From a virus, in the IMG/VR virus record IMGVR_UViG_3300049139_000178, positions 30,962-94,961 of that record: a stretch of DNA of 64,000 bases; one strand, written 5' to 3'. Under the pieces are notes generated by a model. It did not search any database, was not told the DNA's origin, and worked only from the letters and a program-made list of their open reading frames with translations. A program made the position numbers and the translations under genes. Within the stretch, counting starts at the first letter, position 1. Each line of letters begins with the position of its first letter. Shown here in pieces: positions 1 to 50,614 of the stretch.

Positions 1-591
1 GACCAGGTGACCCCGGGACATCATCCACAGCGGGGAGCGGGTGTAGACCGCGTCCTCCCACACGCTGCCGAGCCCCTGCCCGTCCCCGCGCGCCATCGTG
101 GCGGTGAAGCCGACAGCCCGCGTGCCGGGCATCCCGCTGTAGCAGCCGAGTCCGGCGAGGATGTTGCGGTAGCTGACGGCCGCCGCGTGGTGGCACTCGT
201 CCACGATGACCAGACCGACCTTGCCGCACTTCTCCTGCGAGTCGACCAGGCGGTTGAACCGGGTCTCCCGGGCGAGGGTCTGCACCGAGCAGACCATGAC
301 GTCAGCAGCCACGTTGTCGGCCGCCGCCTTCACCTTGCCGACGAACAGGCTCGGTTCGGTCTGCTTCAGCTTGTTCAGCGTCTGGTCGGCCAGCTCGTCG
401 CGGTGCACAAGGATGACGACGCGGCTTCCTTCGGAAGCAAGGTGCTCGGCCGCCATGCGGGAGAACACGACCGTTTTCCCTGCGCCAGTTGGGAGCACAA
501 CGGCGGGCCGCTGCATGCCGTCAGCCCACGCGGCCTGGACGGCGTCGATGGCTTCGCGCTGGTACTCGCGAAGCGTCAGGGTCTGGCTCAC
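1..591 (-). CDS. SF2 DEAD/DEAH-box helicase (ResIII/UvsW-like), C-terminus beyond the window edge
   Basis: Manual translation from GTG at 591: MSQTLTLREYQREAI...VLPTGAGKT (motif I)...LVHRDEL...IVDECHH (motif II)...GFTAT (motif III). Open to position 1, so absent from the ORF track. Confidence 0.9.
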   Translation of the reverse strand, partial: MSQTLTLREYQREAIDAVQAAWADGMQRPAVVLPTGAGKTVVFSRMAAEHLASEGSRVVILVHRDELADQTLNKLKQTEPSLFVGKVKAAADNVAADVMVCSVQTLARETRFNRLVDSQEKCGKVGLVIVDECHHAAAVSYRNILAGLGCYSGMPGTRAVGFTATMARGDGQGLGSVWEDAVYTRSPLWMMSRGHLV

Positions 592-968
592 TGGTTCGTC
601 CGCCCCATCTCGCGCAGGATCCGCCGGGCCTCGCCGTCGGGGCACAGCGGAGGCGGGTAGTCGTGGATCAGGCATTCGCCCTGCTCGTTGACCGCGCACG
701 GCTTCGGGTCGGCCCACGCCATCAGCATCGGCGCGGTGGCCTCCAGTGCGACGTCCGCGCCCTGGCGCCAGAAGTGCGCCTCCGGCTGGTCCCAGTTGGG
801 GCGCAGCGCCTCGGGGACGGTCACGCCCCGGTACGTCTCCGGGCCGTCAGTCGGCGGTCCCGGCCAGACAGCCTTCCGGGAGTCCGCGAGGCTCTTCAGC
901 CGCTGCACGTGGTCGGGGCTGAGCGATTCGAGCAGGCTCAGCAGCTTGCGGTCGTCGTCGTTGCTCAT
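588..968 (-). CDS. hypothetical phage protein
   Basis: MSNDDDRKLL...; stop overlaps the helicase start (GTGA coupling). Confidence 0.65.
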   Translation of the reverse strand: MSNDDDRKLLSLLESLSPDHVQRLKSLADSRKAVWPGPPTDGPETYRGVTVPEALRPNWDQPEAHFWRQGADVALEATAPMLMAWADPKPCAVNEQGECLIHDYPPPLCPDGEARRILREMGRTNQ

Positions 969-2281: not shown

Positions 2282-5200
2282 ATGACCACGTACGTGGAAG
2301 CGAACGCGGGGCAGTTGTCAGACCACCATCTGGCGGAGCTGGACGCGAGTGAGATCGCGCCGGAGGTGCGTGAAGAACGCGGATACGAGACCCTGTACGG
2401 CACCGACGAGGACAAAGCCCTGCTGCGGCAGGAGAAGATCCCGGTCTGGGCTTGGCGTGAAGAGAGTGCGTTTCCGGGACTCCTTCTGCCGATGTACCGG
2501 GTGACCGGCGAGCGCATCGGCGCCATGTTCAAGCCCGGCATCCCGCAGGTGCACAACGAGAAGAAGGTGAAATACGCGACGCCGGTGGGCAAGTCGCGTC
2601 TGGACATCCCACCGACTGTGGCGCACCTCGTCCGTCCGACAGACCCCAAGGTCATTCTTGAGGCACCGCTGTGGATCACGGAGGGCATCAAGAAGGCTGA
2701 CGCCCTCGCATCCAAGGGTCTCGCCACCGTCACCCTGTCCGGGGTGTTCAACTGGCGCGCAACCCTCGGCACGCTCGGGGACTGGGAAGACATCCCGCTC
2801 AAGGGGCGCCGGGTCATCATCTGCTTCGACGCGGACGCCCGGCACAAGCCCAGTGTCCTCTCCGCCATGATCCGCCTGGGCCGGTGGCTGGAGACCCGGC
2901 GGGTTGAGAGCGTCTACTACCTGATCGTCCCCGAGGAGGTGAACGGGGCCCAGGTCAAAGGTGTGGACGACTATCTCCACGCCGGCGGCACTCTCGAAGG
3001 GCTGCGGGACGCGGCCACGCGGGAAGTCCCGTCCGACAACACCCGGGATGCCGCCTTCAGTGACGCCGTTCTGGTCGAGACGCTGTGCATGGAGGCTCTG
3101 GAAGGGAACTACCGGTGGGCCTCGGGCCTGGGGTGGTTGAACTGGAACGGCAGTGTCTGGGCCGAGTGCTCGGAGGCTCAGGTGCTGGAAGAAATCCGGT
3201 TGTGGGCCCGTGCGGGGTGGGATCGGACCCTGGAGGAGATGCGAGGGGGCAAGGACCTGCGCGGCCAGTTGGACGGCTGGAAGGGCGTCCTCTCGGCCGG
3301 CAAGTTGGGCAGCCTGCTGAAACTGGCCCGGGGCGTCGCAGGGATTCTGGCCGACGCGAACGATTTCGACTACGACCCGGACGTCATCAACTGCCGAAAC
3401 GGCATCCTGGACCTGCGTACGGGTGTCCTGACCCCGCACGACCCGGACCGGTTGATGACGAAGATCACCGGTTGCGACTACGTGAAGGGCGCCACGCACC
3501 CCGACTGGACCACGGCTCTGGAGGCCGTCCCGGACGACTCCCGCGACTGGTTCCAGATCCGCAGCGGCCAGGCCATCACCGGCCACACCCCGCCGGACGA
3601 CATGATCCTCATCTGCCAGGGCGGCGGGTCCAACGGCAAGTCGTCCGTCATGGACTCCATCGCGATGGCCGCCGGGAAGAGGGGCGGCTACCACACGGTC
3701 GTCTCCGACAAGGCCCTGCTGGGGAACGCTTCCGACGGTCACTCCACGGAGATGATGCCGTTCATGGGCGCGCGTCTCGCCGTGCTGGAGGAGACCCCGG
3801 AGGCCAAGCGGCTGGACGTGAACCGGGTCAAGAAACTCGCGGGCACGGATCAGATCACCGCGCGCAAGATCCGCCAGGACAACATCACCTTCGCCACGAC
3901 GCACAGCCTGGTCATCAACACCAACTTCAAGCCCCTGGTGGACGAGACGGACCACGGCACATGGCGGCGTCTGGCCATGCTGGTGTTCCCGTTCACGTTC
4001 AGGAAGCCCGGGGAGGCGTGCACGGGGCCGAACGACAAGGCCGGTGACCCGAACCTGCGCCAGCGCCTGCGGGCTGACGAGCGGGTCGCCGAGGCCGTCC
4101 TGGCATGGCTCGTGGAGGGCGCCCGCAAGTGGTACGCGGCCGACATGATCCTGCCCCCGCCTCCGAGGCGGGTGGAGAAGGACACCCTGGAGTGGCGCCG
4201 TGAGTCGGACCTGATCCTGTCCTTCATCGGGGACGTCCTGGAGTTCGACTGGAACAGCCACATCGCCGCCCGGGAGCTGCACGAGGTCTTCAACAAGTAC
4301 CTCGTCGACAAGGGTCACCGGGAGTGGACCGACCGCACGTTCGTGAGCCGTTTCGGAAGCCACGACGAGTGCTCCCGGAACTCGGTCCAGCGGAAGAAGA
4401 TCAGGGCTCGGGACGGGCGGTCGACGCTGGGCGGACCCGCACCCACGGGCGTCAACTACTACGCGTGGCTAGGGATCAAGTTCCAGGACCCGAACGGAAA
4501 CGGCCAGGTCAGCGAGGAAGAGTCGGGAGGTGTACCGCCTGTACCCTCTCCTCCGGTTAACGGTGAAACTGTCTCTCGTATAGAGGTAACCGACGCAGGA
4601 GGTACAGGGGGTACACCTCCTCAACGCGACCCTGAAGCGGACCCGTTTGGGGATGATCCTTTCGCCGAAGCGGAAGCACCCCGCGTGGCCACCGTGCCTG
4701 CTCCGGCACCGTCCCCGGAGAGCGTCCCGCCCCGCGCCGGCGGCGTGATCGGATTCGACATCGAGTCACACTCGGCCAAGCGGCTGTTCACCCACACCGA
4801 CCTCGGCGGGGACCCGTACACCAAGCTGTCCGGCTACGTCACCGAGGACGGGACCGAGGTCGTCGTCAACTCCGTGCAGGAGCTGATCAAGCGTCTGGAA
4901 GACGCCGACGAGATCTACGGCCACAACCTGCTCGGGTTCGACCTCATGGCTCTCGCCCGTCACCACGGCGCCGACTACGACAAGCTGGCCGCCAAGACGG
5001 TGGATACCATGCGATGGGCGATGACTGTTGACCCGCCGGGCGCCAAGGGCGAAAAGCCGTGGTCCGCCAAGGGCTATTACAGTCTGGACGGCCTTGCCGC
5101 CCGGCTGGGCATGCCCGGCAAGACGGACGACCTCCGGGCCCTCGCCATCAAGCACGCCCCGGAGGAGATCGACGGGCGCAAGCTGACCGACGACGAGCGG

Positions 5201-6652
5201 GCCGAGATCGGATACGGCCGGATCCCCGAGGATGACCCCGAGTACCGCTCGTACTTCAGCGGCGACCTGAAGGCGACCCGGGGCGTGCGGCGCGCTCTGG
5301 GTGAGCCCTCGGACTACGTCCGGCGCGAGATGCGCGTGGCCCACCTCCAGCACCGCATGACGTACAACGGCTGGCGCGTGGACGTCCCCGAACTGACCAG
5401 GCTGGTGCAGGCTGAGGCCGACAAGCGGCAGGAGTCGCTGGAGTGGTTGCATGAGAACTGCGGCGTGCCGCTGACTAGGTCGGTCGGCAAGGGCCGGGGA
5501 AAGAACCGCGTCTTCACGGACGAGCCGGTGCTTGCCCCCTTGTCCACCAATGAGGGCCGGGACGCCCTCATCCGGGCGTTCGCCGATCGGGGCCTGCCGT
5601 ACTACCTCAAGACGGCGTCCGGGACACTCGCCACCAGCAAAGACGCGCTGGGTGAGGGTGCCTACCTGGTGGGCAAGGGCAAAGAGACCCGCGAAATGCC
5701 CGCCCTTCTCAACCCGAACCGCCGCCCGTTCCACCCGGACGCGGACTGGGCGGCGATCGAGGAGATGGCGGGCCACATCGTCACCGTGACGTCTTCGGTG
5801 CAGAAGTACGCGGAGATCCAGAAGCACCTCATCGGGGACCGGGTGCACCCGAAGGTCGGTGACCTCCAGGCGTCCGGTCGGTGGGCGTACATCAACCCGT
5901 CAGTGACCAACATGGGCAAGCGTGGCGGCAAGGTCCACCAGCGGCGCCCGATGATCGCCGATGACGGCATGCTGCTGGTTGCGTTCGACCTGGACCAGGT
6001 CGACATGCGCGCCGTGGCCGGACACAGCCAGGACGAGGCGTACATGGCGCTGTTCGGGCCGGGCATGGATGCGCACAGCATGGTCACCGATGCCGTGTTC
6101 GGCCGGGACAACTGCGGGTGCACGGGACCGAAGCACACCTGTGAGTGGCGGGACAAGGCCAAAGCATCCGGTCACGGCTGGAACTACGGCATGGGCGTGG
6201 ACAGTCTTGTCCTCCGCCAGGGTGTCGAGCGGGCGGTGGCTCAGCAGTTCGACGACCAGATGAACGCACAGTTCCCGGGGCTGTGCGCCTGGAGGACTGA
6301 AGTCCGCGAGCGGGGCAAGGCCGGCGAGCTGCTGGACAACGGCTTCGGCCGGCTTATGCGCTGCAACCCCGACCGTGCCTGGACGCAGGCTCCGGCGCTG
6401 ATGGGCCAGGGTGGCGCCCGGGACATCATGTGCGAGGCGCTGTTGCGGCTCGTCGACCGGGCCCCGGAGGCCACGGAGTGGCTGCGATGCGTCGTGCACG
6501 ACGAGGTCGTCCTGTGCGTCCCCGAACACCGCGTGGAGGAGACCACGGCCACCGTGCTGGAGGCTTTCACGTTCGAGTTCAAGGGCGTGCCGATCACGGC
6601 AGGCGCCTCCAAGGCGGCCGTGTCGTGGGACGCGTGCTACGCGAAGGACTGA
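2282..6652 (+). CDS. primase (DUF3854/TOPRIM-like) - D5-like SF3 helicase - 3'-5' exonuclease - family A DNA polymerase fusion
   Basis: WITEGIKKADAL, ICFDAD, KGVDDYL (TOPRIM); INCRNGILDL...HDP (D5_N); GGGSNGKS (Walker A); FDIES/GHNLLGFD/YFSGD (Exo I-III); DLDQVDMR, KASGHGWNYG, VHDEV (PolA motifs A, B, C). No stop between domains; GAGGA RBS before ATG 2282. Confidence 0.92.
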   Translation: MTTYVEANAGQLSDHHLAELDASEIAPEVREERGYETLYGTDEDKALLRQEKIPVWAWREESAFPGLLLPMYRVTGERIGAMFKPGIPQVHNEKKVKYATPVGKSRLDIPPTVAHLVRPTDPKVILEAPLWITEGIKKADALASKGLATVTLSGVFNWRATLGTLGDWEDIPLKGRRVIICFDADARHKPSVLSAMIRLGRWLETRRVESVYYLIVPEEVNGAQVKGVDDYLHAGGTLEGLRDAATREVPSDNTRDAAFSDAVLVETLCMEALEGNYRWASGLGWLNWNGSVWAECSEAQVLEEIRLWARAGWDRTLEEMRGGKDLRGQLDGWKGVLSAGKLGSLLKLARGVAGILADANDFDYDPDVINCRNGILDLRTGVLTPHDPDRLMTKITGCDYVKGATHPDWTTALEAVPDDSRDWFQIRSGQAITGHTPPDDMILICQGGGSNGKSSVMDSIAMAAGKRGGYHTVVSDKALLGNASDGHSTEMMPFMGARLAVLEETPEAKRLDVNRVKKLAGTDQITARKIRQDNITFATTHSLVINTNFKPLVDETDHGTWRRLAMLVFPFTFRKPGEACTGPNDKAGDPNLRQRLRADERVAEAVLAWLVEGARKWYAADMILPPPPRRVEKDTLEWRRESDLILSFIGDVLEFDWNSHIAARELHEVFNKYLVDKGHREWTDRTFVSRFGSHDECSRNSVQRKKIRARDGRSTLGGPAPTGVNYYAWLGIKFQDPNGNGQVSEEESGGVPPVPSPPVNGETVSRIEVTDAGGTGGTPPQRDPEADPFGDDPFAEAEAPRVATVPAPAPSPESVPPRAGGVIGFDIESHSAKRLFTHTDLGGDPYTKLSGYVTEDGTEVVVNSVQELIKRLEDADEIYGHNLLGFDLMALARHHGADYDKLAAKTVDTMRWAMTVDPPGAKGEKPWSAKGYYSLDGLAARLGMPGKTDDLRALAIKHAPEEIDGRKLTDDERAEIGYGRIPEDDPEYRSYFSGDLKATRGVRRALGEPSDYVRREMRVAHLQHRMTYNGWRVDVPELTRLVQAEADKRQESLEWLHENCGVPLTRSVGKGRGKNRVFTDEPVLAPLSTNEGRDALIRAFADRGLPYYLKTASGTLATSKDALGEGAYLVGKGKETREMPALLNPNRRPFHPDADWAAIEEMAGHIVTVTSSVQKYAEIQKHLIGDRVHPKVGDLQASGRWAYINPSVTNMGKRGGKVHQRRPMIADDGMLLVAFDLDQVDMRAVAGHSQDEAYMALFGPGMDAHSMVTDAVFGRDNCGCTGPKHTCEWRDKAKASGHGWNYGMGVDSLVLRQGVERAVAQQFDDQMNAQFPGLCAWRTEVRERGKAGELLDNGFGRLMRCNPDRAWTQAPALMGQGGARDIMCEALLRLVDRAPEATEWLRCVVHDEVVLCVPEHRVEETTATVLEAFTFEFKGVPITAGASKAAVSWDACYAKD
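4526..4620. repeat. palindromic origin-like element, copy 1 (inside the helicase-polymerase linker)
   Basis: GGAGGTGTACCGCCTGTACC ... GGTACAGGGGGTACACCTCC inverted arms with TGTACC units around an AT-richer core; related copy at 49943-50025. Confidence 0.7.
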
Positions 6653-6657
6653 CGGCC

Positions 6658-6867
6658 ATGGCTGACGTGATCGAGTGCCCCCTGTGCGGGGACCTGGTGG
6701 ACACGGGCGCGATGGACGACTCGCTCAAGGGCTCGCACGTCCCGGGGCACGGGCCCGGCGGGTGGCGGCTGTGCGAGGCCTCGGGGCTGCCCGTCGATGA
6801 GGCCCTCGCCATAGCCATCTTGCGTGCAGAGGGCGGCGAGCGTCTGCGTCTGGCGGCTCACCCGTAG
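6658..6867 (+). CDS. small Cys/His (Zn-binding) protein
   Basis: MADVIECPLCG...H...C directly after the polymerase stop. Confidence 0.65.
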   Translation: MADVIECPLCGDLVDTGAMDDSLKGSHVPGHGPGGWRLCEASGLPVDEALAIAILRAEGGERLRLAAHP

Positions 6868-23202: not shown

Positions 23203-24471
23203 ATGACCGACACCACCACATCGCTCCCGGTCTACGAGCGCCGGGACATCCCCGAGCAGCACCGGCACCTGCGCACAATGACGGAGCTGAAGAAGGACCG
23301 GCTGAAGCCCGCCGAGGGGCAGGAGCCCGTGGCCATGCTGCGGGTCTACCGGCGCGGGCACGGCTGGGGCAAGTTCCCGCTGTACGACCCGGCTGGCGCG
23401 GCGAAGATGCGCCCGCTGTCCGCGAAGCAGCAACGGGCCATGGAAGTCCGGCGCACCTGCCCCGAGTGCGAGGCCGTGCGCGGGTACGTCGTCTACACCC
23501 GGTGCACCGACTGCCGTACGAAGGCGCAGCAGGAAGCGCAGGACCGCCGGGCCCGGACCTGCGAGCGGTGCCGACGGGTGTCCGGGGCCGCGCTGCCGAA
23601 GGACGTACACGGCTGGCCGGCGTGCGACCCGTGCCGGATCCGTTACGCGCTCTGCAAGCAGCTCGCCGACGAGCGCGCGGCCGTGTGGCGCCGTACCTGC
23701 CCCGGATACCCGGGCCACGACTGCACGGTGCAGACAGCAACCGATGAGGAAATCACTGAGGCGTGGAACGCCGGAGACTACACCGGCCCCTGGCGATGCC
23801 CGCCGTGCGCGGAGGCCTACGACAGGTGGCAGGAGACCCAGCACCGCGAAGCGGAGGAGAACGGGCGCCGCGCTGAGGAAGCGCGGGAGCGGCAGGTCGC
23901 CGACCTGTCCGCGTGGGCGCGGGACGCCCTCGCCGACCCGGCCGTGGTCGTCCTGGACACGGAGACGACCGGGCTGCACGACGAGGCGCGCATCGTCGAC
24001 CTGGCTGTGCTGACCGCCGGCGGCGACGTCCTCGTGGACACGTTGCTCGACCCGGGCGAGCCGATCCCGGCCGAGGCGTGGGGAGTTCACGGCATCTCCG
24101 ACGCGGACGTGCAGAGGGCGCCCCGGTTCGGCGACATCCTGGTGCAGCTGACCGGCGCACTGGTCAACCGCCGGTGCCTGATCTACAACGACACGTTCGA
24201 CGTCGCCCGGCTGCGTCACGAGCTGACGCTGCACTACCGCGAGGCCGGCCACGACGACCCGGCCGCCTCCGCCGCCGCGTGGCTGGGCACGATGCGGTTC
24301 GAGGACGTGATGGTGCCGTACTCGGACTGGTTCGGGGAGGAGTCACCCTTCGGCGACTACCGCTGGCAGCCGTTGTACGGCGGGGACCACCGGGCCGCCT
24401 CCGACTGCCGCGCGGTGCTGGACCGGCTGCGCGACATGGCCTCCGGGGTTGTCGACCCGGTCGAGTCATGA
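23203..24471 (+). CDS. DEDDh 3'-5' exonuclease (DnaQ-like) with N-terminal Zn fingers
   Basis: VLDTETTGL, VHGI, YNDTFD, HRAASD; several CxxC pairs. Confidence 0.88.
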   Translation: MTDTTTSLPVYERRDIPEQHRHLRTMTELKKDRLKPAEGQEPVAMLRVYRRGHGWGKFPLYDPAGAAKMRPLSAKQQRAMEVRRTCPECEAVRGYVVYTRCTDCRTKAQQEAQDRRARTCERCRRVSGAALPKDVHGWPACDPCRIRYALCKQLADERAAVWRRTCPGYPGHDCTVQTATDEEITEAWNAGDYTGPWRCPPCAEAYDRWQETQHREAEENGRRAEEARERQVADLSAWARDALADPAVVVLDTETTGLHDEARIVDLAVLTAGGDVLVDTLLDPGEPIPAEAWGVHGISDADVQRAPRFGDILVQLTGALVNRRCLIYNDTFDVARLRHELTLHYREAGHDDPAASAAAWLGTMRFEDVMVPYSDWFGEESPFGDYRWQPLYGGDHRAASDCRAVLDRLRDMASGVVDPVES

Positions 24472-30097: not shown

Positions 30098-31104
30098 TGC
30101 CGCTCCCACCCACCGTGCTTGTCGTCACCGCGCCTGACGACCTCAGCGCCGATCTCGTGATACGGCAGATCCAGGAACGCGGCGTCACCATCCACCGCCT
30201 GAACCCTGCTGACCTCGCGCGTCCGGGGGCCCTGAGGATGACCGGCGTCTCAGACGGAGAGCCGTTACGGTTCACCATCGAAGACAACCACCGCTCCACG
30301 CTCTCGCAGTCGGTTGTCTCCGTTTTCTGGTGGCACCCGGGCCTGCCCGGTGGGTGGGAGCAGCAGGAGTCCCGGGCCATCCTGGAGGACTTCCTGTACG
30401 GCCTTGACGGGACGCTGTGGGTGAACCACCCGCTCCGGGCACAGGCTGCCCGGCCCGGCCCACGGCAACTGCACGTCGCTTCGTCTCTCGGCCTCCGGAC
30501 TCCACCCGCACTGTTCACCAACGACCCCGACCAGGCCGCTGCGTTCGCCGCCGAACAAGGCGGCAAGGTGGTGTGCAAGACCCTCACCGCACACCCGGAC
30601 CGGTTCGTCCAGGCCCGGCTGGTGTCCTCCGGGGAGATCCTGGCCAACGCAGATCACGTGCGGCAGAGCGTGTGTTACTTCCAGCGGCCTGTGGACAAGA
30701 CGCACGACATCCGACTGACGGTGATCGGCGACCGGATGTTCCCGTGCAAGGTCACCGCCGGCGGTGCGTTCGACTGGAGGGCGGCACCGGAGGACGACCT
30801 GGGTTTTGAGGCTGTGGGCGCCAGCCTGCCGCTGACGCAGAAAGTCCGGAAACTCATGCAGACGCTGGGGCTGGAGTACGCCGCCCTGGACTTCGCCGTC
30901 GACCAGGGCGGCACGTGGTGGTTCCTGGAAGCGAACCCGGCGGGCCAGTTCGGTTTCGTGGAGACGTCTACAGGGATGGTCATTTCGCGGGCCATCGCCG
31001 ACCACCTCGTTCAAACGGCCCTGGCCACCCACGTCTACACTCCCGGAGGCGGCCACCGAGCATATTCGGGGACGCCTTGGCAACGGGGGTCCGCCGGCGT
31101 GTAG
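30097..31104 (+). CDS. ATP-grasp peptide maturase (RimK/MvdD-like graspetide synthetase)
   Basis: DLSADLVI, WVNHP, GLRTP...TNDP, VCKTL, FQRPVDK..DIRLTVIG, DWR, AALDF, FLEANPAGQFGF; TTA codon at 30265. Confidence 0.9.
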   Translation: MPLPPTVLVVTAPDDLSADLVIRQIQERGVTIHRLNPADLARPGALRMTGVSDGEPLRFTIEDNHRSTLSQSVVSVFWWHPGLPGGWEQQESRAILEDFLYGLDGTLWVNHPLRAQAARPGPRQLHVASSLGLRTPPALFTNDPDQAAAFAAEQGGKVVCKTLTAHPDRFVQARLVSSGEILANADHVRQSVCYFQRPVDKTHDIRLTVIGDRMFPCKVTAGGAFDWRAAPEDDLGFEAVGASLPLTQKVRKLMQTLGLEYAALDFAVDQGGTWWFLEANPAGQFGFVETSTGMVISRAIADHLVQTALATHVYTPGGGHRAYSGTPWQRGSAGV

Positions 31105-31366: not shown

Positions 31367-33220
31367 GTGCCGTGGTACGACGCATTCCGGGGGCGCGTGG
31401 CTCGGGAGCCCGCTCCGCTGCCTCAGCTGCCTGAAGGGCTGACGGCCGCCGCTGCTCCGCCGCCCGGACCGGAGACCAAGTTCTTGCGCCGCACCGAGGC
31501 CTGGCAGGAAGAGGTCTGGCGCTTCCACGACACGCTCGGCGAGTTCAATTACGGCGTCGGGTGGTTGGCCAACATGCTTTCCCGGGTGCGCCTGCGGGCG
31601 GGCCGCCTGAAGCCGGGCTCCGATGAACCGGACATCGTCACCTCCGGCACAGCCGCCGACCTCATGATGCTGTTCGGCGGGGGAGTCGCCGGCCAGTCGC
31701 AGCTCATGCGACGCCTCACGGTTCAGCTCGCGCTGCCCGGCGAGGGCTATCTGGTCGGCGAGCAGGACGGCAAAGTCGAGCGCTGGCAGGTCCGGTCCGT
31801 GGACGAAATCCGCGTGCAGTCCGGCAAGTACCAGGTGATGGACGAGGAGTCGGCCACCACCGGCCAGGACTGGCGTGACCTCGCCGAGGACCACCACGTC
31901 GTCCGCGTCTGGCGACCGCATGACCGCTACTTCCACATGGCAGACTCCCCGGCGCGCAGTGCTCGCGAGATCATGCGTGAGCTGGAGCTGGTCAACCGGA
32001 AGATCGCAGCCGAGTACTTGTCCCGGCTGGCCTCTGCCGGCCTCCTTCTGCTCCCTGACGAGCTTTCGTTCCCGGTTCGCGAGGAGTTCGCCAACGACCC
32101 GGACAACGCCAACCCGCTGATGTCCGAGTGGATCGAGATCGCCGCGACGGCGATTCAGAACCCCGGCACCGCCTCGGCCGTGGTGCCCATCCCGCTGGTC
32201 GGCCCGGCCGAGGCCATCGAGAAAGTGAAACACGTCGACTTCACGTTGAAGATTGACGAGAAGATCATCGAGAAGCGGGACAGCGCGATCAAGCGACTGG
32301 CAACCAAGTTGGACATGCCGGCCGACGTGCTGCTGGGCATGGGCGACGTCAACCACTGGGGGCAGTGGCAGATCGAGGAATCCGGGCTCAAGACGCACAT
32401 CGCCCCCGTCGCGGAACTGATCTGCGACGCCCTCACGCGCGGCTACCTCCAGCCCCGGCTGGAAGCGTCCGGAGAGGACCCGGCCGCGTGGGTCGTCTGG
32501 TACGACATGAGCGAGCTGGCTCTGAGCCCGGACCGCAGCGGGAACGCCACCCTGGCCTACGACCGGCTGGAGCTGTCCGGCGAGGCGTACCGCCGGGAGC
32601 TGGGGTTCGACGAGGACGACGCACCGGACGACGAAGAGCTGCGGGTACAGTCCCTCAAGTCCATCATCCGCACCCTGCCGTCCGGCGCCGCGTCGGCCCT
32701 GGCGCAGCTGCTCGGCGAGGACGTCCCGCAGATCGTCCCGGTCTCCCCGCAGGATCCCGGCACAGCCGAAGCCGTGCAGCAGGGCGACACGCCTCCGCCG
32801 GCGAACCAGCAGCCGACCGAGGAGGGCGCGGGCCGCGCGGCGCCGCCGAGCGATGAACCCTCGCCTACACAGGGCCGGACCGGGCCACCCTCGCGAGACC
32901 AGCAGGCTACGGCTGAGCGAGCGCAACGGCTCGTACAGCAGGCCCGGACGCAGCACATGCTCCGCGTCGGCGCGACGAACCGGTGGGACCTGCTGCACCC
33001 CGGCATCTGCGGAGAGCACGAGTACTCGTGCCCGTTCACACACGCAGTCGTCGCGGCAGCTCCCTCCGTACGGCCCGGCAGCAGCGGGACGTACCTCTGC
33101 CACCTGGACGCTTTCGGCCGCCTGGTCCTGGACGGTCGTAGCCCGTACGCGGACACCACGGCCATGATCTCCACCTCGCTCGTTCCAAGGGCGGTGAACG
33201 GCCATGCCCCCGCGCACTGA
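31367..33220 (+). CDS. portal protein
   Basis: WQEEVW.F....GEF.Y, LALPGEGYL, RVWRPH...ADSP, SRLASAGLL, NHWGQW; first gene of the head module; GGAGG RBS. Confidence 0.82.
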   Translation: MPWYDAFRGRVAREPAPLPQLPEGLTAAAAPPPGPETKFLRRTEAWQEEVWRFHDTLGEFNYGVGWLANMLSRVRLRAGRLKPGSDEPDIVTSGTAADLMMLFGGGVAGQSQLMRRLTVQLALPGEGYLVGEQDGKVERWQVRSVDEIRVQSGKYQVMDEESATTGQDWRDLAEDHHVVRVWRPHDRYFHMADSPARSAREIMRELELVNRKIAAEYLSRLASAGLLLLPDELSFPVREEFANDPDNANPLMSEWIEIAATAIQNPGTASAVVPIPLVGPAEAIEKVKHVDFTLKIDEKIIEKRDSAIKRLATKLDMPADVLLGMGDVNHWGQWQIEESGLKTHIAPVAELICDALTRGYLQPRLEASGEDPAAWVVWYDMSELALSPDRSGNATLAYDRLELSGEAYRRELGFDEDDAPDDEELRVQSLKSIIRTLPSGAASALAQLLGEDVPQIVPVSPQDPGTAEAVQQGDTPPPANQQPTEEGAGRAAPPSDEPSPTQGRTGPPSRDQQATAERAQRLVQQARTQHMLRVGATNRWDLLHPGICGEHEYSCPFTHAVVAAAPSVRPGSSGTYLCHLDAFGRLVLDGRSPYADTTAMISTSLVPRAVNGHAPAH

Positions 33221-36218
33221 CCACCAGCACCCGCCGGTCGTGACGGCCGCCGCCGACGGCTCGCACACGCAGGGCTGCATGATCGCCCTCATGCCGACGG
33301 CCGAGGACGCCGAACGCCTCGCGATACCCGGCGGCGAGCCGGCCGAGGAGCTGCACTGCACGCTGTACTACCTGGGCAAGACGGACGCGCACCCGGCCGA
33401 TGCGCGCACGGCCCTGGTCGACGAACTGACCGCGCTCGCACAGGACATGCCGCTGGTCACGGCCAAAGTATTCGGGGCCGCGCACTGGAACGGGGACAGC
33501 GACGAGCCGTCTTGGGTGTGGTCCGTGGGTGACGGTCCGGACGAGGCCGCCGTGACCGAGTATGGGACGGGCCTGGAGGCGTACCGCAGCCTGGCGGCTC
33601 ACGCACTGCTGCGGTCCGGGACGTCCACGCTGATTCCCAAGCCGCACAGCCCCTGGGTCGCCCATATATGCGCCGCGTACAGCGACGACCCCGCGTTCCT
33701 CCCCGAGCTGGAGCAGCGGCTGGGCGAGGTGATGTTCGACCGGATCCGGGTCAGCTTCGGGGACGAGGACCACGACATCCCGCTCACCGGCGACGCGGTG
33801 ACGGCCGCCGCCGGGCCGCTGCGCCGGGAGCCGACCGAGCTGGAGCTGGCCTCGCGCGTCGACTTCGCCTCCGTGCATCAGGAGTGGGAAGCCGCGACGA
33901 ACCGGGCGATGCAGTCGCTGAGGTCGGTCACGGCCGCCTGGCGCCTGGACCTGCGGCAGCAGATCACCCGCGACCTTGCCGACGACAGGCTGGACTCCAT
34001 CCCCGAGCTGACCCTGGACAGCCGGGCCGCCACGGCCACACTGCTCACCCTCATGGAGGAGTACGCGGTCAAAGCGGGCCGGGCGTGCCAGCGCGAGGCA
34101 GAGCAGCAGGGCGTCGCCGTGCCGGACTGGTCCCTGCCCGAGGGCGACGAGGACGCGGTCACCGCTGCGCTCACCGGCCGGCGCCTGCTGGCCTCTGTTG
34201 CAGAGCTGGCCAGTGACCTGATGTCCGGTGCGCTGCTCACGGCCGCGAAGCGCAAGCTTTCCGGGCTGCTGCGCTCCAGCCGACCGACGGACCAGATCGC
34301 GGCCGAAGTAGACCGGGAACTGGCCACGGTCGACGACACCTCGGTACGGGCCTCCATCGGCCAGGCAATGACGGCTGCTCAGAATGCCGGGCGGAACGCT
34401 GTGATGGAAGCGGCTCCACCCGCGTCCAGCTACGTGGCCAGCGAGATTCTCGACCGCCGCACCTGCGAGCCGTGCAAGGCCATCGACGGCCGCACCTTCA
34501 CCACTCTGGACGCCGCCGTGGCGGAGTACCCGGTCATGGGCTACCGCGATTGCACCGGCGCCCGGTACGGCAACGCCTGCCGGGGCTTCCTCATCGCCGT
34601 CTGGCAGGACGTACGCAGCCCGGCGACCACGGCAAGTGCCGACACCCACCCGGCCGCTCAGGACGCGGCGGAAGGAGATCAGTTCATGACGACCGAAGCA
34701 GCGACCGAAGCGACTGAAGAACTGGGTAAGGGGGAACCGAACCCCGGCACTCCGAAGGACAAGCGTCTGAAAAAGAACCAGACGGCGGCCGAAGAGAAGC
34801 GGTGCCCGCCCGGCATGGAGCTGGACGAGGAGTCCGGCGAGTGCGTGCCGGAGTCCGACGAGGAAGAGGCAGCCGGGGGCACGCGGACGCTGCGCGGTGA
34901 GCACGGCCCGGAGACCCTGGCCCACGGTGCGGCGGCCGACGCCGAGAAGGTGGCAGGCCCGCCGGTCAGCGAGATGGGCGGCGGGGAGACCGCGCCGTGG
35001 CGCGGGCCGCTCACGGTGGAGGGCATCGAGACCGGTGACGGCCGGGAGTTCAAGCCCGAGGCGTTGACGTGGGCGGACTTGCCGCTGCCGTTGCGCTGGA
35101 ACAAGGAGGACTCGCACGGCGGAGAGCCGCACACCGTCGCGGTCAACGTCGGCCGCATCGACAAGGTGTGGCGGGAGGACGGAGGCCTGGTCATGGGCGA
35201 GGGCGTGCTGGACCTGTCCACCGAGGACGGCCGCACCGTCCACGGCAAGATCAAAGGCCAGTTCCTGCGCGGCGTGTCGGTGGACGTCGACTCGATCAAG
35301 GACGCCGACATGGAACTGGTGTGGCCGTCCGACCCGGAAGAGGACGGCGAGGGCTCCCCGTTCGACATGCTGTTCGCGTCGCCGGAGAAGGTGGTGTTTC
35401 ACCGGGGCCGTATCCGGGCCGCGACGCTCGTGGACATTCCGGCGTTCGCCGAGGCGTACATCGCCCTGCTGGACGAGGACGGCGCGGTCGTCGCTGGCGG
35501 GGAGCCGATCGGCGCGGTGCGCGAGACGCGGGTCCGTACGGCCTACGCGCGTACGGTGGAGGCGCCGGTGCGCCCGCCGGCCGGCTGGTTCGCCGACCCG
35601 AAGCTGTCTGTGCCGACGGGGATCACGGTCACGCCGGAGGGCCGCGTGTACGGGCACGCCGCGCTGTGGGGCACGTGCCACATCGGTCAGGAGGGTGTGT
35701 GCGTCACCCCGCCGCACGAGGAGTCCCACCCGTACTACATGACCGGCAACGTCTGGACCGAGGACGGCGCGTCCGTCTCCGTCGGTCAGATCACCGTCGG
35801 CACCGGGCACGCGCCACTGTCCTACGGCTACCGCGCGGCGGCCGACCACTACGACAACACCGGCGCGGCCGTGGCAGACGTCGCAGTGGGCAACGACGCG
35901 CACGGCATCTGGGTCGCCGGGTCCATCCGTCCCGGCACCTCTGAGTCGCGCATCCACGAACTGCGCGCGGCCGGCCAGGTCTCCGGCGACTGGCGCCGCA
36001 TCGGCGGGAGCCTGCGCCTGGTCGGCCTGCTCGCGGTGAACGTCCCCGGCTTCCCCGTCCCCAAGCTGAAGACGCACCTCACGTCCGGCCAGCAGCTCGC
36101 CCTCGTCGCGGCGGGTATCCCGCAGCTCTCCGAGGGCCTCACCGAGGACGAGCTGGACCAGTGGGCCTACCGGCGCGTCCTCACAGCCCTGTCCCGCAAA
36201 GTCCACGGAGAGGAGTGA
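33204..36218 (+). CDS. 2H phosphoesterase - MuF minor head - capsid maturation protease fusion
   Basis: LHCTL.YLG and WVAHIC (2H motifs); SEILDRRTCEPC..IDG...CRG (MuF); EGIETGDGR...VGRID...SVD (protease-like); position between portal and capsid. Confidence 0.75.
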   Translation: MPPRTDHQHPPVVTAAADGSHTQGCMIALMPTAEDAERLAIPGGEPAEELHCTLYYLGKTDAHPADARTALVDELTALAQDMPLVTAKVFGAAHWNGDSDEPSWVWSVGDGPDEAAVTEYGTGLEAYRSLAAHALLRSGTSTLIPKPHSPWVAHICAAYSDDPAFLPELEQRLGEVMFDRIRVSFGDEDHDIPLTGDAVTAAAGPLRREPTELELASRVDFASVHQEWEAATNRAMQSLRSVTAAWRLDLRQQITRDLADDRLDSIPELTLDSRAATATLLTLMEEYAVKAGRACQREAEQQGVAVPDWSLPEGDEDAVTAALTGRRLLASVAELASDLMSGALLTAAKRKLSGLLRSSRPTDQIAAEVDRELATVDDTSVRASIGQAMTAAQNAGRNAVMEAAPPASSYVASEILDRRTCEPCKAIDGRTFTTLDAAVAEYPVMGYRDCTGARYGNACRGFLIAVWQDVRSPATTASADTHPAAQDAAEGDQFMTTEAATEATEELGKGEPNPGTPKDKRLKKNQTAAEEKRCPPGMELDEESGECVPESDEEEAAGGTRTLRGEHGPETLAHGAAADAEKVAGPPVSEMGGGETAPWRGPLTVEGIETGDGREFKPEALTWADLPLPLRWNKEDSHGGEPHTVAVNVGRIDKVWREDGGLVMGEGVLDLSTEDGRTVHGKIKGQFLRGVSVDVDSIKDADMELVWPSDPEEDGEGSPFDMLFASPEKVVFHRGRIRAATLVDIPAFAEAYIALLDEDGAVVAGGEPIGAVRETRVRTAYARTVEAPVRPPAGWFADPKLSVPTGITVTPEGRVYGHAALWGTCHIGQEGVCVTPPHEESHPYYMTGNVWTEDGASVSVGQITVGTGHAPLSYGYRAAADHYDNTGAAVADVAVGNDAHGIWVAGSIRPGTSESRIHELRAAGQVSGDWRRIGGSLRLVGLLAVNVPGFPVPKLKTHLTSGQQLALVAAGIPQLSEGLTEDELDQWAYRRVLTALSRKVHGEE

Positions 36219-49400: not shown

Positions 49401-49470
49401 CGCCGACGAGGTGTTCGTGTTCGACGACCCGGTGCAGGGCCAGTTCGACCGTGGCCGGCTCGGTACGTGA
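46441..49470 (+). CDS. large minor tail/baseplate protein with beta-rich accessory domains
   Basis: Follows the tape measure; DTFGRSVADGWG, ISVSYGR, F.LNN..RRYSP, FVFRDR. Confidence 0.75.
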   Translation: MPVAFRSVGPRLKVDMTSAPNPQTVAMPPGHAAGDLLLLILVYDNNVPPTTDPGGWTLLGAASAGQSPPGATASQVQTRVYYRMATGATPGASFSFSKAAWPTGSPFVLAFTAAYSGVDPAGPIEKWVGTGTANTAATQTHPQLTTMVNGDWLLTLRTGSAWQARTVTASGGTNVERVDDNDGFGELFAALYDSGADLAPGTQAQRSTTSAGGDAVCQGGSTMWSLALKPVTPATITYALPGTASVTATAYNPAVQTAPGGWELCGEQGLPGYRFLIDWDAEGTLGDMSTTGPVYSSDTFGRSVADGWGNADTGQTWTVGSNTSNFSVSGGAGRHAVSARGVSRFSLLPAPSPDTDMRVNWSADQAGVADSLYVHLTARYLDADNMYYARVQMASTGSVVLTLRKRVGGTETVLATGSTTLAFSAGTVYTARMRVMRDLLAAKVWPAGTEEPGAWQVSATDSDLSAAGSVGLRTVVGSATTNTLPVTFSFDDFSVSSTVDLEDVTEEIISDISVSYGRDQERQLSPAAVGSASFTLNNSGRRYSPENALSPLHGDLDPARPMRATVTFNGQTHALFNGRIDDYDVHADYADRTAEFTFLDALSDLAGIKLSTGVYGSMRTGELINTVLDLAGWTAGRDIDPGATVVRYWWAEGTDALSSITDLVKSEGPPSVAYVAPDGTFVFRDRHHRLLRTQSRESRATFVGGRLEDCEAGSPPASGYDFTKPFTYSHGWRDIVNSVTFDVEQRTPSATLEAVWTDESTYTLTSGQSVELEVTTSDPFVDAVTPRSGTDLTFTAAGGASVWAFLSRTSGASAKLTLRAVGGPATVTFVQLRARPLTVQRTVKVSLTDPGSITRHGERSYPDGAPWAGPADAEAIANMILLHYARRRPTVQLRIASKDPTHFMQVLQRTVSDRIRIVNEEMGLDGDFFVERVTHTIQRTGRPGRAPVHSVVLGCERDLVAPDNTFAFDQRGRGFDQGVFDLTVADSADEVFVFDDPVQGQFDRGRLGT

Positions 49471-49480
49471 GGAGAGACGG

Positions 49481-49867
49481 ATGGGGATGGAAGTTCCGCG
49501 CGAGCGGACGCCGGTGGCGCGAGCGTACGTCTACGGCGGGGACTGGGTGGCCGACTGCCCGAGGCCCGGGACGGAGCCCGGCCGCCCCGGCTGCGGCAAC
49601 GTGGAGTTCCTGCACCGGCCGTCGCGCATGGGCGGCCCGAGGGACATCCCACTGGAGTTCTTCATGTGCTCGCACTGCGGCATGCAGGCTCCCATCGTCT
49701 GGCCGGACAACCAGCACGCGATCCTGGCCGTGCTCGCCCGGCGGCCGGTGCCGAAAACACGCAACTGGTACCCAGCCGACCACCCCGTGGCGGTCCGGTT
49801 CCGCCTCCCGCACGGACAGAGCGTGCGGGATCTTGAGGCCGAGAACGAGGCCCACGGTGTGCACTGA
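49481..49867 (+). CDS. Zn-binding hypothetical protein
   Basis: WVADCP...CGN...CSHCG; GAGGAG RBS. Confidence 0.65.
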   Translation: MGMEVPRERTPVARAYVYGGDWVADCPRPGTEPGRPGCGNVEFLHRPSRMGGPRDIPLEFFMCSHCGMQAPIVWPDNQHAILAVLARRPVPKTRNWYPADHPVAVRFRLPHGQSVRDLEAENEAHGVH

Positions 49868-49942
49868 CGCGACCCCGAGAACGTTAGGCGCAATAACGGT
49901 TAAGGCTGAAAATCCGCAGGTGAAGACCTACTGCAAGATCAC

Positions 49943-50025
49943 GTACCCCCTGTACCCTCTCCGTCGGTTAACACAGAAATTGACCCCTCATAGGCGTTAT
50001 ACGGAGCAGAGGGTACAGCGGGTAC
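49943..50025. repeat. palindromic origin-like element, copy 2 (intergenic)
   Basis: GTACCCCCTGTACCCTCT ... AGAGGGTACAGCGGGTAC arms (17/18 match); same 83-bp span as copy 1. Confidence 0.7.
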
Positions 50026-50071
50026 AGAAACTAGTTCGTTTCGTTAACAGGGCTCTGGAGGTGGCCTGACG

Positions 50072-50614
50072 ATGGCCTGGAGCGCACCTATGACCGCCGT
50101 CGCCGGGGCGACCTTCACTGCGGCGGCCTTCAATCAGTTCGTCCGCGACAACCTGCTGGAGACCGCGCCCGCCAAGGCGACGGCCGCTTCCCAGCTCTTC
50201 GTCTCCACGGGGCCCAACGCGATCGCTACCCGCGTCCCCACGCAGGCGTCGGTCACCACCAACCAGTCGACGTCCTCGTCCACGTTCACCGACCTGGCCA
50301 CCGTCGGCCCCCGGGTGACCCTGGAAACAGGCACCATCGCGTTCTGCTGGTTCGGAGCCAGCCAGGCCCACAGTGCCAACGACAACGAAACCGCCTGCTC
50401 CGTCGCCGTCTCCGGCGCGTCCACCGTTGCCGCGTCCAACGCCTGGCAGCACTCCACTGACGGTGTCACTGCCGGCAACTACGTGCGCGGCACCTCGTTC
50501 CATATCTTCACCGGCCTGACCCCCGGGGTGAACGTCTTCACCATGAAGTACCGGCTCGGGGTGTCCGGCGTCGCCAGCTTCCGTGACCGCGAACTCGGCG
50601 TACTGCCGCTGTAG
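50072..50614 (+). CDS. minor tail/fibre protein, paralog 1
   Basis: MAWSAPMTAVAG..FTAA.FN.F.RDNL.ETAPAKA; Thr/Ser-rich. Confidence 0.7.
   Translation: MAWSAPMTAVAGATFTAAAFNQFVRDNLLETAPAKATAASQLFVSTGPNAIATRVPTQASVTTNQSTSSSTFTDLATVGPRVTLETGTIAFCWFGASQAHSANDNETACSVAVSGASTVAASNAWQHSTDGVTAGNYVRGTSFHIFTGLTPGVNVFTMKYRLGVSGVASFRDRELGVLPL

Follow-up and report, generated by a model that had tools for sequence, protein, structure and literature searches.

A conserved single polypeptide with predicted primase, SF3 helicase and proofreading PolA modules from a Streptomyces phage-plasmid, and a palindrome in the DNA of its linker

Can the replisome of a phage-plasmid be carried by one protein chain, and why does the DNA encoding the linker of such a chain differ so much from the rest of its gene? 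Both questions are raised by an open reading frame (ORF) at 2282..6652 (+) of a 64,000-nucleotide stretch of virus DNA (IMG/VR record IMGVR_UViG_3300049139_000178, positions 30,962 to 94,961), which is called the window in the following. A preliminary description, made from the letters alone, had interpreted this ORF as a novel fusion of a primase, a superfamily 3 (SF3) helicase and a proofreading family A DNA polymerase (PolA). We find that the ORF is a genuine and conserved single polypeptide of this composition, with primase, helicase, polymerase and exonuclease activities predicted from its sequence. It is probably the self-contained replicase of a temperate, siphovirus-like Streptomyces phage-plasmid of ~95 kb, and belongs with Pas55 of Actinoplanes phage phiAsp2 to one type of fused replicases. 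Its linker DNA contains a palindrome, which we discuss as a candidate replication origin.

The frame on the + strand is open from 2132 to the stop codon at 6650-6652, and from the ATG at 2282 it comprises 1456 uninterrupted codons plus the stop, as the preliminary description had stated; its list of domains (primase, D5_N/SF3, linker, Exo I-III, PolA motifs) and their coordinates were likewise correct according to Pfam and motif comparisons. The start agrees with the N-termini of annotated and metagenomic homologues, and residue numbers are counted from it throughout. The G+C content at third codon positions (GC3) of the gene is 0.86, which is what a real Streptomyces-type gene would show, and PHROG families for DNA primase and DNA polymerase match the product with E values of 1e-70 to 1e-75.

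A word-indexed search for homologues with the same architecture returned more than 120 clusters. About 110 of them, with lengths of 1380-1540 aa and 43-85% identity, all share the same four Pfam domains (PF12965, PF08706, PF19263 and PF00476), and none of the more than 110 clusters is split at the linker. The few shorter homologues begin at positions 192, 324, 429, 501 or 622, inside the primase or helicase domains and not at the linker, which identifies them as truncated gene calls and not as natural splits. In an alignment of 110 full-length homologues, the basis of the conservation counts given below, 260 positions are kept in at least 99% of the sequences, and every catalytic motif checked is among them. 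We take the fusion to be maintained by selection. The only sequencing run that contains the whole stretch, a soil-metagenome contig set, covers 3900-5300 without differences and shows no stop or frameshift, although it is probably the source of the window itself and not independent evidence; no RNA run containing the stretch is listed. Neither of the two observations that, according to the preliminary description, would refute the fusion was made.

The genomic setting is that of a phage-plasmid. The window encodes a terminase, a portal, a portal/protease-like fusion protein, a major capsid protein, a tape measure protein and a tyrosine integrase. It shares ~23 kb of synteny with pS1D4-14.2, a linear plasmid of 98.8 kb from Streptomyces sp. 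S1D4-14, which encodes a full-length homologue, WP_181360814.1, with 72% identity. This homologue is labelled merely 'phage/plasmid primase, P4 family', the name that RefSeq homologues carry. An identical protein is recorded on a contig of 94,961 bp. A contig of Streptomyces sp. NPDC017936 with 92,184 bp has a terminal overlap of 95 nt and therefore assembles as a circle of 92,089 bp; the replicase ORF is intact across the junction, and we conclude that the element is a phage-plasmid of ~92-99 kb. No second family A polymerase was found in the scanned parts of the phage-plasmid.

The N-terminal module (2282..3031, residues 1-250) is predicted to be a DnaG-type primase RNA-polymerase domain, whose TOPRIM part is matched by Pfam DUF3854 at residues 127-236 (E 2e-15). 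Residues 1-260 were modelled with AlphaFold2, with 54 diverse relatives as input, and the model has a predicted local distance difference test (pLDDT) score of 91. In Foldseek it matched the DnaG catalytic cores 2au3, 1dde and 4e2k, T4 gp61, Twinkle and T7 gp4 with a probability of 1.0. Since these matches extend over ~250-260 aligned columns, the module corresponds to the full DnaG-type primase core and goes beyond a mere TOPRIM fold. Residues E134, D183, D185, D229 and D230 are invariant among the 54 relatives and are kept in at least 99% of the full-length homologues.

The primase is followed by a D5_N domain (3104..3523, residues 275-414; PF08706, E 2e-18) and an SF3 helicase core (3542..4141, residues ~421-620; DUF5906 at 446-563, E 4e-7), so that the D5_N plus SF3 ATPase core of the P4 alpha/D5-type primase-helicases is present. 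The helicase core holds Walker A (G447-S454), Walker B (E503/E504), motif C (N546/N548) and an arginine finger; these motif residues and R562/R563 are conserved at the same level of at least 99%. The family profile matches a hexameric D5-type helicase, C962R of African swine fever virus (ASFV), with an E value of 4.5e-27 over query positions 356-666, and from this homology it is reasonable that the helicase module would be a hexamer carrying several polymerases, as the preliminary description had considered. Next comes a C-terminal D5/P4-alpha-type region (4199..4486), for which Pox_D5 (PF03288) gives a marginal match at residues 640-695 (E 2e-4, 22.0 bits against a cut-off of 21.4) and which was extended to residue 735. 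It is presumed to be a winged-helix origin-binding domain, a role suggested by P4 alpha and D5 (PMC4889955).

In four homologues of ~1805 aa (P0032, P0078, P0091 and P0118), Walker A is interrupted exactly between K453 and S454, a site equivalent to ~3638-3643 of the window, by an insert of ~350 aa. A LAGLIDADG match (PF14528) in three of the four inserts identifies the insert as an intein in the P-loop, and an intein at the Walker A site implies that the host protein must be functional.

The C-terminal half of the chain consists of a 3'-5' exonuclease domain together with the N-terminal part of the polymerase (4742..5758, supported by the Exo I-III motifs and the AlphaFold2 model) and of the PolA palm and fingers with motifs A, B and C (5759..6649, from Pfam and an alignment to Taq). 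Pfam DNA_pol_A matches residues 1185-1442 (E 5e-26). In an AlphaFold2 model of residues 700-1456, the exonuclease and polymerase mostly have pLDDT values above 90, and the PolA model superposes on the Klenow, KlenTaq and Bst large fragments with TM-scores (TMt) of 0.70-0.78. Residues kept in at least 99% of the homologues include those of Exo I (D826/E828), Exo II (N882/D887) and Exo III (Y991/D995), and those of motif A (D1236), motif B (R1290/K1294/Y1302) and motif C (H1406-D1407-E1408). The PolA is Klenow-like, with an active-looking 3'-5' exonuclease. Position B3 of motif B, which is Phe in Pol I, Tyr in T7 and Leu in some clades, is His1298 here (6173-6175), according to the alignment to Taq. 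A His occupies B3 in 113 of the 118 PolA-clade representatives in which the motif was found, Pas55 included, and may affect nucleotide selection.

To what extent is this architecture shared beyond the close homologues? An exhaustive HMMER search with the PolA part was made against 1.8 billion representatives, and among the best 150 matches, 146 were newly listed. Of these 146, 89 (~60%) are proteins of 1220-1806 aa with the PolA at the C-terminus. Our own hidden Markov model (HMM) of the DUF3854-like TOPRIM matches 72 of the 89, a few of the matches being short or misplaced, and our own SF3 HMM of the replicase type matches ~30 of them; Pfam applied to a sample revealed some forms with an undetected middle module. 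One metagenomic protein of 1513 aa (P0143) has an archaeo-eukaryotic primase (AEP) Prim-Pol in place of the TOPRIM, followed by a DUF5906 SF3 helicase and a PolA of the same clade, which shows that primase modules have been exchanged in the fusion family. Cultured phages encode their closest PolAs and primases in separate genes, which are often adjacent. No record of the phage collection covers at least 80% of the replicase, so that collection contains no close full-length homologue. Unfused DUF3854-D5_N-SF3 proteins of ~700-815 aa are encoded in genomes of Streptomyces, Micromonospora, Sphaerimonospora, Knoellia and Acidobacteria.

The helicase and the PolA are joined by a disordered, hypervariable linker rich in Pro and acidic residues (4487..4741, residues ~736-820, ~85 residues), with AlphaFold2 pLDDT values below 50 for residues 733-816. 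Codons 736-795 have a GC3 of 0.30-0.57, compared with 0.8-1.0 elsewhere in the gene. The same dip is present in 12 of 12 homologous loci, where the lowest value over 30 codons of the linker is 0.23-0.47 and the flanks have 0.89-0.99. Within this DNA lies a palindromic element, the putative origin (copy 1, 4526..4620), with arms of 34 nt (4526-4559 and 4587-4620) and a core of 83 nt (4532-4614) in which GTACC-N4-GTACC and GGTAC-N4-GGTAC are separated by 55 nt. The GTACC core is invariant in the 12 homologous loci, synonymous sites included, and thereby forces the use of the rare codons GTA, ACA and GGT. The odd sequence of the linker is largely dictated by the DNA element, a point absent from the preliminary description of the fusion.

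A second copy of the element (copy 2, 49937..50031), ~45 kb away, is intergenic, between the ORFs at 49451-49867 and 50072-50614. Its GTACC pairs and their 69-nt spacing are identical to those of copy 1, and both copies are oriented along transcription. Allowing at most one mismatch, GTACC-N4-GTACC occurs 18 times in the window against 2.7 expected occurrences. IMG/VR relatives have the element at the same two syntenic places, even in clades whose helicases are only 38-58% identical, and the circular relative of 92,089 bp has exactly two copies, at 61 and 45,397, which lie 49% and 51% of the circle apart. Covariation was analyzed in an alignment of 28 palindrome copies, 24 of them distinct. 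All five variable stem pairs proved compensatory, and 94% of the cells are paired; the covariation score of 0.208 compares with 0.058 for shuffled alignments, was reached by none of 500 shuffles, and exceeds the 0.003-0.043 of slid controls. Concerted evolution of the two copies was also considered and was not seen. In Rfam no family matches the palindrome, the only hit being a sub-threshold chance match to a miRNA precursor (21 bits, with a gathering score of 90).

The homologous locus of Streptomyces sp. NRRL S-455 (L003, 3001-7377) is a mosaic, with a PolA part that is 97% identical to that of the window and primase and helicase parts that are only 73-78% identical, which points to recombination at or near the linker palindrome.

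Similar elements accompany the unfused primase-helicase genes. Inverted repeats were scanned in 12 loci of unfused homologues, ~8 kb each, and in 8 of them (L007, L008, L009, L012, L013, L016, L017 and L019) the strongest inverted repeat lies at -253 to +101 nt of the primase-helicase stop codon; in a ninth, L035, the top repeat is likewise near the stop and has a different design. Six of the eight (L009, L012, L013, L016, L017 and L019) have the design of the window, with two direct repeats per arm placed 9-10 nt apart, while L008 has one TGTGCAGG unit per arm and the palindrome near the stop of L007 has no clear tandem pair. Arms measure 17-37 nt. In the six loci the centres have 18-55 nt, most of them with a CGTAGAG-like motif, and the repeat units are specific to the lineage (TGTGCAG, TGGGACG, TGGCAGGGGG, GGGGAGT or GGCCCGAGT). 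The ORF already reads through the element in L012 and L013. The element accompanies the primase-helicase gene in Streptomyces, Micromonospora, Sphaerimonospora and Labedaea. With its placement and design conserved and its sequence co-varying with the neighbouring initiator gene, it looks like a cognate origin.

In L007 (Streptomyces sp. NPDC006624), the palindrome with arms of 37 nt lies at 6693-6748, 101 nt after the stop of the unfused primase-helicase gene, and 1.4 kb further downstream there is a perfect palindrome, CGGTACCG-N-CGGTACCG, which is of the GTACC type seen in the window.

A precedent for an element in this position is the plasmid pRN1, in which a stem-loop of ~100 nt just 3' of a gene for a primase/SF3-helicase/winged-helix protein is necessary for replication (PMC4234260). 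This stem-loop is movable; the symmetry of its stem is essential, compensatory mutation restores its function, and its structure is conserved whereas its sequence is not (PMC4234260). Berkner et al. (2014) described similar stem-loops 3' of bacteriophage replicase genes (PMC4234260). Moreover, experiments support a role as plasmid Rep proteins for DUF3854-helicase proteins of cyanobacteria (PMC10079941).

Is the linker, then, a translated origin? We lean towards this reading, in which the 83-nt GTACC palindrome would be the cognate, pRN1-like stem-loop origin of the protein within whose gene it lies. Copy 2 would be a second origin or a partner site like crr of P4, a replicon whose alpha protein binds both ori and crr, cis sites that lie apart and have iterons in common. 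An ancestral order of primase-helicase gene, origin and polA that was later read through is the most economical history. The wider proposal seems to us evenly poised: that the linker arose as a translated origin when the frame was extended through a primase-helicase gene, a stem-loop and polA, that its DNA therefore specifies both a disordered tether and the assembly site of the same protein, and that the fusion family is large and unrecognised, with TOPRIM and AEP variants and at least two helicase modules, and dominates its PolA clade.

Several observations weigh against an origin in the linker or against a self-contained replicase. The cumulative GC skew of the complete circular relative is noisy, and neither palindrome coincides with a clear extreme of it. 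Within a genome, copies 1 and 2 show no clear co-variation (identity 0.67 within and 0.61 between genomes), although co-variation would be expected if one protein read more than the GTACC units. In the linker of Pas55 the GC3 dip is slight and a palindrome of this kind is missing, so that the fusion itself can do without an embedded origin. A palindrome placed directly behind a gene could, in addition, be an unusual terminator. As regards the protein, the 54-relative alignment and the structure matches give a primase module without the zinc-binding domain that serves template recognition in DnaG and T7 gp4, and priming may therefore differ in mechanism or require a partner. The C-terminal D5/P4-alpha-type region has no sequence match in the PDB, which, together with the marginal Pfam match, makes the winged-helix assignment weak. 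Finally, no biochemical study of any member of the fused family was found in the literature.

The strongest competing explanation, which we consider the less probable but a serious one, is that the palindrome is not an origin and that the linker merely tolerates it, as an element acting at the RNA level (a pause site, an unusual terminator or an RNase III site) or as the site of a partition, transfer or regulatory protein. Each element keeps the complementarity of its own arms even where copies 1 and 2 of the same genome differ, as would suit a single strand that folds; a stop codon, after which terminators lie, directly precedes copy 2 and the elements at the unfused loci, the two copies share the orientation of transcription, and the GC skew gives an origin no support. 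Yet a terminator would look different from elements whose centres measure 18-55 nt and whose arms of 17-37 nt each hold two direct repeats 9-10 nt apart, and a terminator or RNase III site within an essential ORF would be harmful. The way the element follows the primase-helicase gene across four genera with lineage-specific units is the pattern of a cognate initiator and its site, pRN1 provides a tested precedent for a stem-loop origin (PMC4234260), and no Rfam family matches.

If the palindrome is an origin, initiation can be envisaged as follows. In each arm the paired GTACC units would be bound by the C-terminal D5/P4-alpha-type region, and the centre, which is richer in AT, would be encircled by two assembling SF3 hexamers, as has been proposed for pRN1. 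The DnaG-type domains would then prime the exposed strands, and the PolA units, each on a flexible tether of ~85 residues, would extend and proofread. SV40 large T antigen and papillomavirus E1 are the textbook SF3 initiators with such double-hexamer assembly. If the helicase module hexamerises like D5 and C962R, as we infer from homology, each ring would carry six primase and six tethered polymerase units. Six polymerases per ring might permit a T7-like polymerase exchange without a separate recruitment tail, and the fusion would hard-wire the coupling of primase, helicase and polymerase that T7 achieves non-covalently. Transcription and translation of the gene would also cross its own origin, which might, speculatively, couple expression to firing; the lambda O gene likewise has an origin within its own transcribed and translated sequence.

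Does the PolA replicate the bulk of the genome? An unlikely alternative is that it is not the main replicative polymerase and only extends primers, fills gaps or copies hypermodified DNA, the bulk being left to the host Pol III. This would agree with the unfused primase-helicase genes, which have no PolA within 3 kb, so that their products presumably rely on a host polymerase, and with the ORFs scanned here, among which no clamp or processivity factor was found. Against this, the tether would give a very high local polymerase concentration, able to replace a clamp, the exonuclease site is intact, as in replicative PolAs, and phages that encode a PolA together with a primase-helicase generally replicate their genome with it (PMC4889955).

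It is more doubtful still that the product is a polyprotein, as the preliminary description had allowed, whose linker would be cut post-translationally, by a phage or host protease or by self-cleavage, to yield a P4-alpha-like primase-helicase and a free PolA. In its favour, the linker is long, disordered and exposed; the two parts are adjacent separate genes in the related phages phiSASD1, TG1, BayC and Microbacterium phages, and the apicoplast PREX fusion has been termed a polyprotein by Czernecki et al. (PMC10201439). However, the linker has no conserved cleavage motif: its length varies from 76 to 163 aa among homologues (median 94.5), and conservation in at least 90% of them is limited to a short acidic DPF motif (P793, F794). 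A fusion that persists down to 43% identity, with no split at the linker, would be pointless if its parts acted separately, and gp55 of phage 1706 functions as an intact multi-activity chain (PMC12205980).

The DPF motif was rejected as a general feature, as it is present in just 12 of 87 wider fused representatives, and in the AlphaFold2 model it is not docked on the PolA. Two other ways of separating the modules were considered and rejected: a programmed frameshift, since inspection of the alignment of homologous loci by eye revealed no conserved slippery heptamer upstream of the palindrome, and an internal start for the PolA, since the in-frame GTG codons at residues 803/806 are not conserved. 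That a sequencing or assembly error joined two genes is refuted by the independent homologues, as more than 110 clusters from isolates and metagenomes, the complete plasmid record of pS1D4-14.2 and the circular isolate contig all keep the frame.

Some features of the window close to the replicase gene and at a distance from it are recorded here. The sequence GACCAAGGAA occurs twice just upstream of the replicase start (2246-2285), where the TGA (2283-2285) of an 8-codon mini-ORF with its ATG at 2259 shares the letters ATGA with the replicase start; the mini-ORF may encode a leader peptide or be a translational coupling device. Divergent from the replicase operon, 1-717 (-) encodes the N-terminal part of an SF2 (ResIII/DEAD) helicase, whose plasmid homologue has 889 aa, and a small HTH_17 protein (1522-1746) is encoded between the two. 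A protein of 422 aa (23203-24471, +) with a DnaQ/RNase_T-type 3'-5' exonuclease domain (PHROG 192, 'DNA polymerase exonuclease subunit') is a second exonuclease beside that of the replicase. In the head region, the single chain of a 1004-aa protein (33204-36218, +) has matches to PHROGs of three types, namely RNA ligase-like, head maturation protease and portal/virion structural protein.

All-in-one replicases are wanted as minimal replication machines and for primer-free DNA amplification, and among them only the PolB-type gp55 has been characterised. The PolA-type fused family is large, soil-borne and biochemically untouched, and is missing from the 2023 reclassification of PolA (PMC10201439). 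Should the linker indeed be an origin, it would clearly exemplify dual coding, as the DNA for an intrinsically disordered segment of a protein would also act in cis in replication, and it would illustrate one route to a fused replisome, namely reading through an origin between two genes. The stem-loop origin model for SF3 primase-helicases, as in pRN1 and some bacteriophages, would then extend to many actinobacterial mobile elements.

How does the replicase compare with known systems? Fusions of helicase, primase and polymerase are not new. Kazlauskas, Krupovic and Venclovas stated in 2016 that two exist: Pas55 of Actinoplanes phage phiAsp2, listed as "SF3 helicase + DnaG primase + PolA", and gp55 of phage 1706, in which SF3, an AEP primase and a PolB are fused (PMC4889955). 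For gp55 of Lactococcus phage 1706, four activities and de novo DNA synthesis have been demonstrated in vitro (PMC12205980). The 2023 reclassification of PolA lists PREX, Pol theta and AEP-PolA fusions and none for actinophage PolAs (PMC10201439). Of the preliminary description, the single-polypeptide primase, SF3 helicase and proofreading PolA therefore stands, while its novelty does not, given that Pas55 has the same architecture (PMC4889955) and a PolB analogue has been characterised (PMC12205980). The protein adds to a kind that has been described, though not characterised, and the family is far larger than the literature suggests.

Pas55 (YP_024841, ~1415 aa) is the closest parallel. It has a DUF3854/DnaG-type TOPRIM, a P-loop helicase and a PolA with exonuclease in the same order, it is collinear with our family profile in hhalign over 1230 columns (probability 100), and both proteins have a His at position B3. 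In BLASTP the identity is 35% for the PolA part (E 4e-94) and 26% for the TOPRIM part, but the helicase module in the middle is unaligned, has no Pfam D5_N or DUF5906 match and aligns at the profile level only. Pas55 also comes from a 58.6-kb virus, in contrast to the phage-plasmid of ~95 kb.

In gp55 of phage 1706, helicase, primase, polymerase and 3'-5' exonuclease are likewise in one chain, but its AEP primase and family B polymerase make it analogous and not homologous, save for the SF3 helicase class. PREX and T7 gp4/gp5 also bring together a TOPRIM primase, a hexameric helicase and a PolA, fused in PREX and non-covalently in T7; the primase domain of the replicase structurally matches, among others, T7 gp4 and Twinkle. 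The helicase of both is of superfamily 4 (SF4; DnaB/RecA-like) and not SF3; for PREX the preliminary description had noted this difference, which holds, as the helicase of the replicase is SF3 according to Pfam and the match to C962R. The PolA of PREX lies in an Aquificae-like cluster (PMC10201439), and both Klenow and Taq are stronger profile matches than its structure 5dku (E 2.8e-17).

The two remaining comparisons concern the N-terminal part of the chain and its DNA element. The P4 alpha protein, with TOPRIM primase, D5-type SF3 helicase and winged-helix origin binder, has the module order of the N-terminal 740 residues of the replicase, and the pair of ori and crr parallels the two palindrome copies. 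Alpha has no polymerase, however, and P4 uses the host Pol III; its iterons are octamers and not one palindrome, whereas the proximal site of the replicase lies inside the coding sequence. The pRN1 protein ORF904 is a replicase of primase, SF3 helicase and winged helix, with the stem-loop 3' of that coding part, as here, where the element at 4526-4620 begins 40 nt after residue 735; in window-type elements, too, the symmetry of the stem is kept while the sequence drifts. The primase of ORF904 is an AEP prim-pol and not a TOPRIM, it has no PolA, and its stem-loop is intergenic, whereas that of the replicase is translated in the linker.

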